A stretch of 32,000 bases of DNA from Candidatus Heimdallarchaeota archaeon. Lineage in GTDB: Archaea > Asgardarchaeota > Heimdallarchaeia > Heimdallarchaeales > Kariarchaeaceae. Position 1 is the first letter of the stretch. The number at the start of each line of letters is the position of its first letter. Both the position numbers and the translations under genes were made by a program. Under the pieces are notes generated by a model. It ran no database searches and had not been told where the DNA came from. It saw nothing but the letters and a program-made list of their open reading frames with translations. Where the stretch lies: positions 810,001-842,000 of the forward strand of contig JASBSB010000001.1 of NCBI GenBank assembly GCA_030149205.1, given 5' to 3'. Below are positions 18,811 through 24,463 of this stretch, one piece after another.

Positions 18811-19800
18811 ATGGATGAGATCAATGTCTTCATGTATTGGGAAATAGATTACTTTGTCATCTATTTGGATGGAAGGCTTACTTTTCGAGAGATCTGGTAT
18901 AAAGACACTATGGACTGGCCAGCTACCCTACTAGTTGTTGACACGTATCAGGGGTATCAGAGCTTTATCCCTAAAGAAATGTGTTACGACCTAGGTCAGC
19001 TAAAAAATGCATTGAATCAGTCAAATAACAAAGATTTTTTGGATGAGCTGAGGATCAAACCATTCAGGTATATGAATCTCTTTGCCACCTGGGGCCCAGA
19101 AGATGGGTGGTATCTCTTTGGAGGGATGACTGCCAGCTACAGAAGAGATAGAGACACTTGTGGTTTGTACGATGTCATTTTCGGTGATAAGCCAACAGAT
19201 GCAAAGCTGGAACTGTCATGCCAGGACTTTTTTTATTTCGCCTCAAATCTGCTCTATGATCGAGCACATTGGGTTTATTCTGATAACTTACAAAAGTTCA
19301 TGAATATGAATCCCTTAGAGCAGTCCCAATTTATTGAGACTGTTCATTTCGCAGAGTGGTCATCAGATAAAAAAGACCGTGAGCTTTATAAATGGCAGGG
19401 AAGGTATCTGCTCCACTATCTGCTCTATCTACATGACAAACTGCTGCGTGATGAGCTCTCATTGGAGTATCTCTTCTCCCTGAATGGGTTCACTGTCATT
19501 GGTACACTGGTGGCTTCAGAGAGGGTAAGAAAGAAGTTTATCGATTTCTATACAGATCTGATCTCCCAAAGGGAAAAGCTCCCTAGAGGGTGGAGAGCAA
19601 TCGTTGCTGTGATAATCGAGACCACTTTTTATACAGAAAACCATCATCTTCACTACAACCTTCTTGCAGATGAACTGGGCATCCATTCGACAGAACCATT
19701 TAAAGACTGGATAAAATCTCTTGAGGTGGATGAGTTTGGGTGTTTTGAACATCTAGATGAAGGCTTAAAGAAACTGCGGGAAGAGTTTGGACTTCACTGA
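18811..19800 (+). CDS. Hypothetical soluble acidic protein, paralog A (candidate immunity/partner protein)
   Basis: 329 aa, no signal or TM segment. Shares YMNLFATWGP, GLYD..GDKPTDAKL.LSCQDF.YFASNLLY, DELSLEYL.SLNGF and DWIKSLE.DEFG with 23375..24463. Confidence 0.85.
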   Translation: MDEINVFMYWEIDYFVIYLDGRLTFREIWYKDTMDWPATLLVVDTYQGYQSFIPKEMCYDLGQLKNALNQSNNKDFLDELRIKPFRYMNLFATWGPEDGWYLFGGMTASYRRDRDTCGLYDVIFGDKPTDAKLELSCQDFFYFASNLLYDRAHWVYSDNLQKFMNMNPLEQSQFIETVHFAEWSSDKKDRELYKWQGRYLLHYLLYLHDKLLRDELSLEYLFSLNGFTVIGTLVASERVRKKFIDFYTDLISQREKLPRGWRAIVAVIIETTFYTENHHLHYNLLADELGIHSTEPFKDWIKSLEVDEFGCFEHLDEGLKKLREEFGLH

Positions 19801-19940
19801 ACTAAATATTGGGAAAGATTAGTTTGTATTAATAATATTCACATTTGCCCACAGACATTACAAAAAATATTATCAATTTGTACAAAAAAAAAAAGCTTGT
19901 AGAGAAGATTATTATACTATGAAAGATAATATTTCCTACC

Positions 19941-22900
19941 ATGTATAACAAAATTAAACATTATACTGTGATTGTGATAATTCTTCTTGTATCTTCACAG
20001 ATTGCAATAGGATTTAATTACAATGTGAATATTCAGAGTTTTTCTGAACCTCGTTCAGAGGGAGAAATGTTTTCTGAGTATATTAAAGTGGTGTTAGAAC
20101 CAAAATTAGATTTTAACACCAGAGTGAATTTTGCCAACATGATCCGTGAGTATTATAAAACAGATATTTTCTCAATAGGACTTGTTGCATCTGCAATAGC
20201 TGAATACTACAACGGAAAAATAACCTTTGTAAATAGGGCTTTCTTTATTGAAACATCAGAGTTTAATCTGATCTTAGGACATGGAGAAGATTCAGAGGGA
20301 TATACCATAGGGGGAGTCGATCCATTTGAATTACTTGTCGATGATAAAAAGACCATCTTAGCTGCTTGTGATTCAGATCAATTCACTAAACTAAGCCCCA
20401 ATATTGTTGGTTTTTCAGGCAAGATTACAATTTTGACTGTTTTAACTTACTTATTATCAAAATATTCAGGAAGGGGAGGTTTTCAATCTCTATTGAAAAT
20501 ATATGACTCACCTCAGGTTACAAAGATTTTCTTGGATGTAAAACCTGGTGCATTTTTAATAACCAATCCGTTTGTGATTCAACCACTACTTTCAGTTTAT
20601 GCACAGACAGCAAATTTAGCTATTTCACTTGAAGCTCTTTCACTAATTGTCTCAACATTGGGATATCTATCTCCATTTGTAATAGAGTTGGTAGATGCAT
20701 TACCTCCGTTACGTTCTCTCGTGATTTTCTTATTAAAAGGAAATGATAATAATGGAGCGTATCATATAAATAAAAAAATTAAAAATGGACAATATGGTCC
20801 TCCAACAGAAGCAAAGGAGAGAATAACCAACAAATTTATTGCCAGACCATTGATGGTCCCTTTTAAACCTGTTTTGGTGTATAAGGTTTGGGATACTAAT
20901 TTTGTGAAATTGCATGTGATTTGGCAAGTAAAATGCAAGACTAAAAATGGCACATCTGGATTTGAAGTATTTGGTATAGTTCTTCGACCATCACAGATTT
21001 ATAAAATTCTTACAATTCACACATTAAGACGTGGTGGTGCCTGTAAACCTCAAAATAGTAATGCTAAAACAGCCTTAAACGCAATTAATACAATTTTAGG
21101 TGGGGATTTAAAGCGAAGACATCAAAAAGTTAATTTTGGTTTCAGTCCAGTTCCAGCTCCCATACCTGTCCCAGTACCTAAACCAATTACACAGAAGGAA
21201 CCACAGGTATTGACAACTTCACAGCAGAATCAGATCTGGGAACAATTTCTAAAGCCAATTCTTTTTGCCTTTTTTGTGGCAACAAAAGTGATTATTGATG
21301 CAGTAAAATACATAGATAACATATTCATTGATTGGGGTGGTGGCAGGGGAAGCTCAGGTCATATTGGATACTGGGCGTTGTTTATTACACTACTAATCAC
21401 AATTGCCCTTATCATTGCTAATTATAGCCCTTGGGTCAGCATAAACATCGGAAGGTTTCTCGTGCCCGCTGGAAAATATATGGCTTATGCTGTTGGTGCC
21501 GTAGCTGCTGCAGCACCAGTCACAACACAGGGGCTATCTCAACCACCCCCTACAGATAGTGTTGCATATTTTGTCATAGATAGTCTTGTTCTTCCCCCTA
21601 TTCATGTGACTCCAAATGGGTCAATGTTTCTGGAAGAAATCCTAACTCCAAACTACTATAATCCATTTCTTTTCGACACGGATTCGGATGGGATTTATGA
21701 TTTTTATGAGGAGAAATATTGGAATTACACAAATGACATGATAAGTAAGGTTAATTCCCAGTTTAATACAAATTTACCTTTGGTACCAGAAAGTCAAAAA
21801 TTCGTGTATATGAGTCCATCTGATGATTGGGATAATGATGGACTGAATAATAGTCTTGAGTTTATGCTGAATACACACCCATGGCTGAAAGATACAGATG
21901 CTGATGGCTTAAGTGATGGAGAAGAATATTTCCCAACAATGGGGAATCCTCCTAGTGACCCTGCTAGTCCAGACACGGATGGTGACTTTCTCCCTGACGA
22001 CCTAGAGAGGGCTTGGGGAACAGATCCCCAACTTTATGACACTGATGGAGATGGATTTAATGATGCATGGGAGCTTTACACAGACAAGGTACTAGGATGG
22101 AAACCAGTTGTTATCTGTCAGGGTGCTGCAGGATGTGGTTATCTGCCATTGGATCCAACGAGATCCATGTATGATGCTGCATTTGCTAATGATGACTCGG
22201 ACAACGATGGGTTAAACAACTCTATGGAGGCTATGTATTACACAAACCCAATATCCTCTGATAGTGATGGGGATGGTATATCTGATTTCAGAGAATTATT
22301 TCCATATGGATTGGGAAGTGAGGTCAGGTCGAATGTCCTACCTGAATTTTTGGGTTTTTATGATCAGTATGGGTATGTCCCAGCAACCAACCCCGCTTTC
22401 AACGATACAGATGGGGATGGATACCTTGATAGAAACGAGTTGACTTCGTTAAGCTCACCAACGATAGACCACTTTACCCCAACATCAGATATAGATGAAG
22501 ATGGTATGCAAGACTGGTGGGAATTCAAATATAAGTTAGACCCATATATGGATGATTCTTTGTTGGATCCAGATAATGATGGCTTGAACAACCTACAAGA
22601 GTTTGTTCAAGCAAAAAATCCGACTATTGATGATGTTTTTCCAACTGTTAGCAATGTTTTCCCAACTGGAACAACCATCACATATTCCAGCTCATATAGA
22701 ATTGCTGCAACAGGAAATGATTATAATGGTATCAGTAAAATAAATCTCCAAATTTTTTACTTTATAAGTACTCCAGGAGGTCCAATTCCTGAACCAGTTC
22801 CTTACAGTTTGAGTTCAACCTCAACGAATATAGCTCCAACTTCTTTTGTTTATGTGGTGAATAACTGGTATTACAGTTCATCGTTTAACTATTATTGGGA

Positions 22901-23345: not shown

Positions 23346-23353
23346 TTCAAATA
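23346..23353 (+). promoter_or_regulatory. TATA box of paralog B
   Basis: TTCAAATA at -29..-22 from ATG 23375, preceded by AGAAAAA; same position as TTTAAATA before paralog A. Confidence 0.55.
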
Positions 23354-23374
23354 AGATAATAATCAAATTTATCA

Positions 23375-24463
23375 ATGAATAAAATCAAAGCTTTCTTCCA
23401 TTACGAGGTAAATTATTTTGTCTGCTACCTAGACAGTAGACTTACCTTTCGTGCGTTTGGTCAGAAGGATAGTATGTAGGAGCCAGCGATGTTTCTCTTG
23501 GTAGAAAACTACAACGATTTTCAAAATTATATAAACAACGATAACGTTGAAACAATAGAACAAATTATTGAGATTTTAAATGAACCAAGCTTACATTATA
23601 TTCACGGCTATAAATTAGAAGCATTCACATATATGAATCTGTTTGCAACATGGGGCCCACCAGCTAATGATTTCTTAGGAGGGTTAGAAGCAACATATCG
23701 AAAAAATGAAGAGTTTTTAGGTTTATATGACATTGTCTTAGGAGATAAACCAACAGATGCAAAATTGGTACTGTCTTGCCAAGATTTCTACTATTTTGCT
23801 TCAAACTTATTGTATAATCAAGCAAACTGGAATCTAACACGCGAATATATACCATTGAATCTTGAGATGACTCCAAAAGAACAGTCAGAGTTAATTAAAT
23901 CAATTGAATCATCTTTGAATTGGAAATCAAACAAAAATGAGAAGAATTTGTACAAATTATTAGGATGTTATCAAATCAATTATCTGAAGGAACTTCATAA
24001 GAAACTACTTCTTGATGAGCTGTCACTTGAATATCTGCTCTCATTGAATGGTTTCGCTGTAGTTGGTGCACTTTTGTTTTCGAAGAAACTCCAAAGGAAG
24101 TATCTTCTATTTTTTAGAGAACTTATTGAGAAGCGAGAGAAGCCATCTCGTGATTGGCAGGTGGTCGTTGCAGTTCTTCTTGATTACATAACCGATCCTG
24201 TTCCGCAATTTGCTTATGGGTACCTTGCTGAAGAACTGGATATTCACTCATTGGACCCTTATCAAGACTGGATAAAATCCCTAGAAACAGATGAATTTGG
24301 TGTTTTTGAGTTCATAGATAATTATAATGTCGATGAAGATGAAAATGTTCAAGCGGTATATTTTCCTTATAAAGCATATTTTGATAAATTTGGCAATATA
24401 TTCAAGAGAACGGAGAAAAGTGAGAAGCAAAGGTCTTGGTTTAACAGGTTTAGAGTTTTTTAA
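23375..24463 (+). CDS. Hypothetical soluble protein, paralog B, with an in-frame TAG at codon 35 (readthrough, nonsense mutation or split gene)
   Basis: The frame upstream of track ORF 23489 reads MNKIKAFFHYEVNYFVCYLDSRLTFRAFGQKDSM*EPAMFLLVENY, ungapped against paralog A MDEINVFMYWEIDYFVIYLDGRLTFREIWYKDTMDWPATLLVVDTY. TAG at 23477-23479. Confidence 0.85.

Follow-up and report, generated by a model that had tools for sequence, protein, structure and literature searches.

Within a 32,000-nucleotide stretch of the Candidatus Heimdallarchaeota archaeon assembly GCA_030149205.1 (contig JASBSB010000001.1, positions 810,001 to 842,000; hereafter the window, to which all positions refer), a gene for a large exported multidomain protein lies between two copies of a gene for a protein of unfamiliar type, and the question it raises is what the large protein and its neighbours do for one another. 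In the original prediction the locus was read as an AB-type or polymorphic toxin with two divergent immunity alleles or, as a fallback, as a surface protease with dedicated cytoplasmic partners. Calling of open reading frames (ORFs) in the window placed the three co-oriented genes exactly at the coordinates that had been claimed for them (Table 1). They are referred to here as gene A (product P0001), the gene of the large surface protein P0002, and gene B (product P0003). The source genome spans 3.3 Mb in 12 contigs, is 93.5% complete and has a GC content of ∼36%. The explanation that we favour, at somewhat better than even chances, joins P0002, as a surface protein, to a cytoplasmic partner dedicated to it; the pair of genes that encodes them is confined to Heimdallarchaeia.

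Six-frame searches of related genomes, from which the relatives of P0002 came, showed its first ∼530 residues to be a conserved, collinear unit, termed the N-module. Residues 1–560 aligned collinearly with P0008 (578 aa, G036; E 4e-12) and likewise with five further proteins of 930–1270 aa; the homologs comprise, besides P0008, P0014 (1269 aa, G043), P0018, P0020 and P0021 (G072) and P0019 (1253 aa, G081), and a split copy was found in G075. A word-index search with residues 1–560 or 25–560 returned only P0002 itself. Overall identity of the homologs to P0002 was 17–23%, and the residues invariant among seven aligned long homologs were H114, G115, C143, S145, N154, G157, G272, H275, I276 and P350. 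Two of these, H114 (in LILGHG) and C143 (in ILAACDS), stand 29 aa apart in the domain that we call HGC. All of the homologs have hydrophobic segments after the N-module, followed in all except the short P0008 by 12–22 thrombospondin type-3 (TSP3) repeats, and it is chiefly in the number of repeats that they vary. A middle domain that differs between genomes, as the toxin reading had supposed for its effector, was therefore not what was found: the N-terminal ∼530 aa, with the invariant GxxHI motif, were collinear in all seven aligned homologs. Nor is the charge of that domain shared. Residues 268–400 of P0002 hold 23 K/R and 6 D/E, whereas in six homologs K/R roughly equal D/E or the domain is acidic, so the basic charge that an acidic immunity protein should neutralise is peculiar to P0002.

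Obvious Sec signal peptides were present in four of the N-module homologs. The remaining three each have a signal-like sequence immediately upstream, with a different irregularity in each case: an in-frame stop (G072:C3, L048 ∼9330–9468) or a frameshift (G072:C28, L049 ∼8900–9021) separates the signal-coding part from the body of the gene, or no canonical start codon precedes the signal sequence (G036:C63, L026 ∼4095–4160). These interruptions could be errors of metagenome-assembled genomes, pseudogenisation or non-canonical starts. Since signal-like sequences precede all of the homologs, the N-module would be extracytoplasmic throughout; given an even number of transmembrane (TM) helices, the TSP3 and immunoglobulin-like (Ig) part should lie outside too.

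ORFs were then called in all fetched loci and scored with hidden Markov models (HMMs) of the A family, the P0007 subfamily and the N-module. A gene of the A superfamily was the immediate neighbour of the long N-module gene at eight of eight loci (the window, G043:C6, G036:C63, G072:C31, G072:C3, G072:C28, G081:C46 and G075:C86). At seven of them the pair is divergent, head to head, with spacers of ∼35–380 bp (typically ∼150–180 bp). The window is the exception: A is upstream and co-oriented, and a second copy lies downstream. The same order as in the window was seen on a 1.9-kb metagenome contig (L003), in which an A ortholog is followed, after 141 bp, by a gene that starts MCKKIKFFAIFLAILFTSSQISTGF, a signal peptide of the P0002 type (SSQI..GF). 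The A-like gene is still head to head at G075:C86 (L050 1814–7414), where the N-module gene is divided into an HGC piece of 215 aa, a pair of small ORFs and a piece of 1190 aa that holds the rest together with 21 TSP3 repeats; this split reflects either a broken gene or an assembly error. A short sister family of 350–470 aa shares the HGC domain only (motif IIIGHG...ALL[AS]C), which is followed by a Gly/Pro-rich linker, a beta-rich domain and C-terminal TM helices (e.g. P0017, L025 8143–9195; L051–L058). In the fetched flanks of nine such genes no A-like gene was present. The genomic coupling of the N-module with an A-like gene is strict and is restricted to Heimdallarchaeia, the only group among the 251 Asgard genomes sampled in which the HGC domain was found. 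Another TM-anchored H...C protein, P0016 (L024 8720–9445), is encoded at the same locus as P0014.

The partner proved to be an orphan. A and B are identical at 128 of 280 positions (46%, E 3e-72), which bears out the proposed paralogy of the flanking genes, and a composition script reproduced exactly the earlier manual count for A (53 D/E vs 36 K/R, net −17). That both flanking products lack signal and TM segments held for A, in which no hydrophobic segment was detected, and with a reservation for B, which has one marginal segment within a conserved helix. The AF2 (AlphaFold2) model of A, built from a 7-sequence alignment, was confident (predicted local distance difference test score, pLDDT, 80; predicted template modelling score, pTM, 0.86) and showed a three-stranded sheet at the N-terminus, then a helical segment, another small sheet and finally a helical bundle. 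It gave no meaningful fold match in any structure library searched. A and B were also without a match in Pfam or in PADLOC, so the flanking family, which had not been recognised at the outset, resembles nothing in these collections. A feature-atlas search with A gave no usable match, and one with the P0015 type only weak HEAT/TPR-like leads (<0.9). The superfamily has only three invariant residues, N146, Y203 and G226, which lie in the motifs LSxxEAFxxFAN, YLxYL and ISPxxLLRLNG. Its alignment revealed no conserved acid, base or nucleophile set; a scaffold or adaptor is therefore likelier than an enzyme.

A-family proteins are extremely rare. Among 5.8 billion proteins, a word-index search recovered only A, B and a single metagenome protein, and an exhaustive search of 1.84 billion cluster representatives with a profile recovered seven proteins. 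Among these representatives the A1 profile reached proteins of the P0011/P0012 type (E 1e-6), and reciprocal HMMs cross-matched; P0011 and P0012 represent a second A-like subfamily, with the N-terminal signature LPLFLIQ..IIYVIDN. P0012 (L018 2657–6253; 1173 aa) contains three A-like units in tandem, and an ORF at G072:C2 (L064 1024–2961; 645 aa) contains two fused units. Such natural fusions suggest that the A-like unit works as an oligomer; an A/B heteromer is conceivable, provided that B is functional. The superfamily was present in 19 of 83 Heimdallarchaeia genomes, with 19 matches in G072, 12 in G081 and 6 in G075. The closest relatives of A stand in other surroundings: the G002 ortholog (L013 1802–3832) is fused to a C-terminal extension of 365 aa that is weakly like leucine-rich repeats (LRRs), the G003 ortholog (L011 63–3383) has two LRR protein genes and a D12 adenine methyltransferase gene upstream of it, and that of G001 adjoins ArsR and P-type ATPase genes. 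Although A/B homologs had been expected to be tied to secreted DxDxDG proteins, these closest ones (G001, G003, G018 and the G002 fusion) adjoin none, and no N-module was detected in the four genomes concerned, which are 82–89% complete. The A-like genes of G017, G028 and G031 share a conserved, non-surface synteny. Between the window and the A loci of sister species no synteny was found apart from A itself; the P-type ATPase of a sister locus, considered as a syntenic ortholog, showed only 26% similarity and is a paralog.

Gene B has a hidden beginning. Its homology to A extends upstream of the annotated start, which has GGAG 8 nt upstream, as far as an earlier ATG and across an in-frame TAG. 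Searches of the genome for PylS and PylB (TIGR02367 and TIGR03910) gave best scores of ∼22 bits against cut-offs of 178 and 348; since neither was found in this 93.5%-complete genome, a pyrrolysine reading was ruled out and the TAG is read as a stop. Annotated B is therefore N-terminally truncated. Either it is made without the N-terminal 38 residues of the family (the three-stranded sheet of the A model), or it is made in two pieces, or it is decaying. Each flanking gene had been credited with a TATA box of its own. A TATA-like box does precede A, while the AT-rich promoter-like element of B is upstream of 23375 and not of 23489; all such boxes are weak evidence, since the genome is AT-rich.

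Table 1. Features of the P0002 locus, in window positions
Feature	Position	Strand	Remarks
TATA-like box TTTAAATA	18782–18789	+	−29 to −22 relative to the ATG of A; read from sequence
Gene A (P0001), 329 aa	18811–19800	+	Acidic, cytoplasmic, orphan Heimdallarchaeial family; mostly helical, two small beta-sheets
TATA-like box ATTATTATA	19908–19916		−33 to −25 relative to the large gene; read from sequence
P0002, large surface protein, 1128 aa	19941–23327	+	ORF, Pfam, hydropathy
Sec-type signal peptide, aa 1–29	19941–20027	+	K-rich n-region, hydrophobic core, SSQIAIG-F; hydropathy
HGC domain, aa ∼45–215	20073–20585	+	His114 (20280–20282), Cys143 (20367–20369); candidate Cys/His hydrolase
Middle domain, aa 268–400	20742–21140	+	Begins at the invariant G272-x-x-H275-I motif
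Proline-rich linker PVPAPIPVPVPKP	21150–21191	+	Read from sequence
Two strongly hydrophobic helices, aa 436–458 and 472–501	21246–21443	+	Predicted membrane hairpin; hydropathy
TSP3 calcium-binding repeats	21675–22583	+	9 strict DxDxDG and 1 variant; regex, Pfam
Possible first Ig-like domain, aa 895–1030	22623–23030	+	Big_5, E 0.44 only; plausible, not shown
Big_7 Ig domain, aa 1024–1091	23010–23213	+	Pfam, E 6.4e-16 / 7.5e-18
Remnant N-terminus of B	23375–23479	+	34 codons homologous to A residues 1–34, ended by the in-frame TAG at 23477–23479
Gene B (P0003), 324 aa	23489–24463	+	A paralog without the family's N-terminal beta-meander; unique ∼40-aa C-terminal tail

In P0002 itself, the proposed order of signal peptide, GHG...ACDS domain, basic domain, proline-rich linker and hydrophobic hairpin was upheld by hydropathy and composition scripts, which placed the N-terminal hydrophobic signal at residues 5–29. 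The hairpin helices reach Kyte-Doolittle values of 2.4–3.0 and are followed by a weaker Ala/Gly-rich stretch; in the AF2 model the region appears, at low confidence, as two long helices. Pfam recognised TSP3_bac and one Big_7 only. The former (PF18884) matched five stretches (E 2.4e-11, 43.7 bits vs a cut-off of 25). Ten DxDxDG repeats had been counted; nine are strict and the tenth is a DTDGDF variant. These sites, which had been likened to those of binary-toxin B subunits, belong to the TSP3_bac repeats, and no PA14 or Binary_toxB match was obtained. The Big_7 match (PF17957; 59–65 bits vs a cut-off of 24.1) accounts for one of the two Ig domains that had been proposed, while the other is no better than plausible. 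TSP3 and Big_7 are known extracytoplasmic modules, and surface proteins composed of TSP3 and Ig domains are common. With its C-terminal 550 aa matching both families above threshold, P0002 resembles such proteins, being exported, repeat-rich and part of a family expanded in related genomes; it differs from them in its 530-aa N-module, which has no Pfam or Protein Data Bank (PDB) counterpart, and in its obligatory cytoplasmic neighbour. The expansion is massive in one Heimdallarchaeial genus, whose genomes G072, G075 and G081 gave 86, 55 and 43 TSP3_bac repeat matches, respectively (in dozens of frames of 500–1400 aa), against 4 in the genome of the window. Judged from its domains, P0002 appears to be built as an adhesin or a surface enzyme.

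Whether the head of P0002 is a protease bears on several of the explanations to be weighed. The original prediction had assigned it a clan CD-type domain. What stands of this is the motif: like the clan CD peptidases (C14 caspase/metacaspase, CHAT, the C80 cysteine protease domains of MARTX and TcdA-B, gingipain and legumain), HGC has H-G and A/S-C-x-S motifs, with the His before the Cys and each after a hydrophobic strand; both residues are invariant, the pair being kept in every complete sequence of a 14-row HGC alignment that included the short family. HGC differs from them in its His–Cys spacing of 29 aa and in having no Pfam or profile homology to any member of the clan. Seven N-module members scanned with hmmscan against Pfam at E ≤ 5 gave nothing but spurious TM families and no peptidase family, a profile of the module found no match among PDB sequences, and hhalign comparison of the HGC profile (14 sequences) with Heimdallarchaeial CHAT domains returned a probability of 0.9% over 28 columns, in which only the ...LASC... 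strand was aligned. The AF2 model of the N-module (aa 30–560) was poor (mean pLDDT 50.7; 60–84 in the HGC domain). In it the His and the Cys lie at the ends of successive strands, after three helices and three closely spaced strands, and the caspase-like beta-alpha-beta parallel sheet is missing from this low-confidence model. The fold comparison of modelled domains that had been proposed at the outset thus yielded little: A matched nothing, and the N-module, compared with the PDB (by Foldseek), VIA-wide, the AFDB clusters and the atlas, gave no peptidase- or caspase-like match, only long-helix and weak NTF2-like ones. Recurrent weak NTF2/SnoaL/cystatin-like matches were obtained for the middle domain (E ∼0.03–0.1 in the PDB, 5e-3 to 9e-3 in the AFDB clusters); they concern a stretch with a pLDDT of ∼50 and provide a lead only. 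These weak matches to a low-confidence model do not point to a BECR RNase, and Pfam gave none; RNAse_A_bac, suggested by the feature atlas for residues 40–420 of P0002, scored 0.75, below noise level. The likeness to clan CD is real at the level of the motif, and proteolysis by HGC remains a conjecture drawn from it.

In the explanation that we favour, P0002 would be exported by means of its Sec signal peptide and held in the membrane of the producing cell by the hydrophobic hairpin. Outside the cell it would display a ∼400-aa head, consisting of the HGC domain with its invariant His/Cys pair and the GxxHI middle domain, and a calcium-binding TSP3 stalk with Ig-like domains at its tip. A, and its truncated duplicate B, would be a ∼300-aa non-enzymatic cytoplasmic partner that, from inside, controls the surface protein's production, biogenesis or activity; to judge from the sequences, it is most likely a regulator, an adaptor (acting via the short cytoplasmic loop) or a pre-export chaperone or inhibitor. 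This agrees in part with the fallback of a surface protease with dedicated cytoplasmic partners: the linkage is borne out by the adjacency at all eight loci, and the protease part is suggested at the level of the motif. The gene anatomy, the conservation of the N-module, the invariance of its His/Cys pair, its adjacency to A-like genes and its restriction to one lineage were observed directly; the topology, any catalytic activity, the physical or regulatory nature of the coupling and the role of the partner we infer from them.

Several points weigh against this explanation. The topology proposed leaves only a short loop of the mature protein facing the cytoplasm. Many genes of the A superfamily (up to 19 per genome) are not beside an N-module, and the nearest A orthologs (G001, G003 and G018) are found singly, in settings unrelated to this one; dedication of the family to the task is thus not strict. 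A few A-like copies adjoin other TSP3 proteins, which may be chance since these proteins are so numerous (86 repeat matches in G072). The count of eight out of eight overstates the independent support because the loci are phylogenetically related, and a mirror-tree comparison of N-module and A-like identities (r = 0.45, p ∼0.04, with non-independent pairs) was too weak to use. The broken or non-canonical starts before the signal sequence in three homologs, the premature TAG in B, which may be decaying, and the poor N-module model, which makes fold and topology tentative, must be added to these.

Among the alternatives, the one that survives best, while still unlikely, is that P0002 is a secreted or surface cysteine protease and the A-like protein its dedicated cytoplasmic inhibitor, which would bind HGC before export and so shield the cytoplasm. 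Staphopains and staphostatins follow this logic, the latter being ∼110-aa beta-barrels encoded downstream within the staphopain operon. Here too an exported protein bearing Cys and His is genetically coupled to a cytoplasmic, non-enzymatic protein; the catalytic-looking pair is invariant, the adjacency is strict, and no partner accompanies the short HGC family, whose architecture is different. This last observation cuts both ways, since an inhibitor directed at HGC would be expected beside the short family as well, and none was found in nine cases. Moreover, the protease activity is putative, no similarity in profile or fold to any peptidase clan was detected, and A-like genes also occur in genomes without any HGC gene. 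The dedicated inhibitors known are small and co-transcribed downstream, whereas the A-like proteins are helical, of ∼300 aa and mostly encoded divergently, with no similarity of fold to staphostatins found.

That the A-like protein regulates transcription of the divergent surface-protein gene and makes no contact with its product is decidedly unlikely. The head-to-head layout at seven of eight loci, with a shared spacer of ∼150–180 bp, is the classic one for a regulator and its target, and the best-conserved motif, ISPxxLLRLNGxxxL (with the invariant Gly226), has a pattern that could be taken for a helix-turn-helix (HTH). Against this, no HTH or winged HTH match was found in Pfam and no fold match to any DNA-binding domain; the residues after the presumed turn are hydrophobic, unlike those of a recognition helix, A is strongly acidic (net −17), and in the window the genes are co-oriented.

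A more elaborate version of our favoured explanation, which we regard as very doubtful, would make of the pair an Asgard-specific inside-out machine at the cell surface. The A-like protein, possibly as a homo- or hetero-oligomer as the tandem fusions hint, would be a helical adaptor coupling the intracellular state to the hairpin-anchored ectoprotein, whose Cys/His head would cleave or transpeptidate itself or neighbouring surface proteins and so control the release or remodelling of a calcium-dependent TSP3/Ig adhesin. LapD/LapG/LapA of Pseudomonas, in which a calcium-dependent adhesin is controlled from inside the cell, offers a conceptual analogue only: it too combines a calcium-binding repeat adhesin, a surface Cys protease (LapG, a C-H-D transglutaminase-like enzyme) and cytoplasmic control across the membrane, but no homology was detected, and at the present locus the protease-like domain and the adhesin are on one polypeptide.

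That the adjacency means nothing, the A-like genes being an expanded, mobile cytoplasmic family that tends to land in variable surface-protein islands, is also very unlikely. They are indeed multi-copy and found in many contexts, the genomes concerned also hold hugely expanded sets of TSP3 proteins, and the neighbourhoods are rich in other surface-protein genes. However, the adjacency is immediate at all eight loci, with a fixed head-to-head geometry that persists across proteins only 17–33% identical, while chance would provide it in ∼1% of cases per locus (our own estimate, for at most 19 copies among ∼3,500–4,000 genes).

Least probable of all is an exported AB-type or polymorphic toxin, in which HGC would autoprocess, the basic domain would be the effector, the hairpin would translocate it, the TSP3/Ig part would bind the target and A and B would confer immunity. 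The motif of HGC, which resembles that of clan CD autoprocessing domains, the acidic A beside a basic middle domain, the duplication of the flanking gene, and the multi-copy and sometimes 'orphan' state of A-like genes, as immunity genes can be, all speak for it; they are outweighed by the conserved effector domain and by the nearest A orthologs having no secreted protein beside them, two findings that the original prediction had itself named as contrary to it, and further by the lack of any toxin, binary-toxin, PA14 or peptidase match in Pfam and of any match in PADLOC, by a C-terminus of TSP3 repeats and Ig with no toxin tip, by A-like partners that are ∼300 aa long and divergent at seven of eight loci, unlike downstream co-oriented immunity genes, and by very hydrophobic helices that follow a Sec signal and would be expected to halt transfer in the membrane of the producer. 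The comparison with polymorphic toxin/immunity systems (Zhang et al. 2012, cited in PMC6393860) is to the same effect. What the locus has in common with them is an exported multidomain protein of large size and, beside it, a duplicated gene for a cytoplasmic protein of an unfamiliar family. The differences are that here no variable C-terminal tip is present, the module linked to the partner being N-terminal and conserved; that the partner is usually upstream and divergent and ∼300 aa long, co-oriented only in the window and probably in L003; and that Pfam and PADLOC yielded no match to a known toxin, immunity or trafficking domain.

Other genes in the window deserve a brief description. Directly upstream of A, on the minus strand (17916–18598), a gene for a PIN-domain protein (133 aa, Pfam E 4e-6) shares 4 nt with an upstream ORF of 94 aa that has no Pfam match, an arrangement with the layout of a VapBC-type toxin-antitoxin pair. 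Also on the minus strand (17054–17842), a 262-aa protein shows a marginal Vps4_C match (E 2e-4, 21.7 bits vs a cut-off of 21.3) and weak PADLOC matches to ZorA and Csx1 (E ∼3e-3). Tandem aldehyde dehydrogenase genes (458 and 493 aa, each Pfam Aldedh at ∼E 1e-140) occupy 13415–16330. At 29198–32000 three ORFs follow one another in the same orientation (292 aa, 285 aa and one of 194 aa that is open-ended), each with an N-terminal hydrophobic segment and the two complete ones with internal TM segments; they have no Pfam match and may form an array of paralogous membrane proteins.

In a literature search combining Heimdallarchaeia or Asgard with thrombospondin repeats or polymorphic toxins, no description of these families came up. 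It appears that the N-module, the A-like superfamily and their coupling are undescribed, while the C-terminal half of P0002 is ordinary TSP3/Ig. Of the known archaea, Heimdallarchaeia are among those most closely related to eukaryotes, and to our knowledge almost nothing has been established of their cell-surface biology. The present results define two uncharacterised families, one cytoplasmic and helical (∼300 aa), the other an extracytoplasmic module of ∼530 aa with an invariant His/Cys pair, as well as the fusion of that module to thrombospondin-type calcium-binding repeats, and they remove an unsupported annotation as an 'archaeal AB toxin'. If the coupling is functional, the pair would provide a tractable two-gene entry point, amenable to clear point mutants, to how these archaea build, regulate or shed their surface adhesins.

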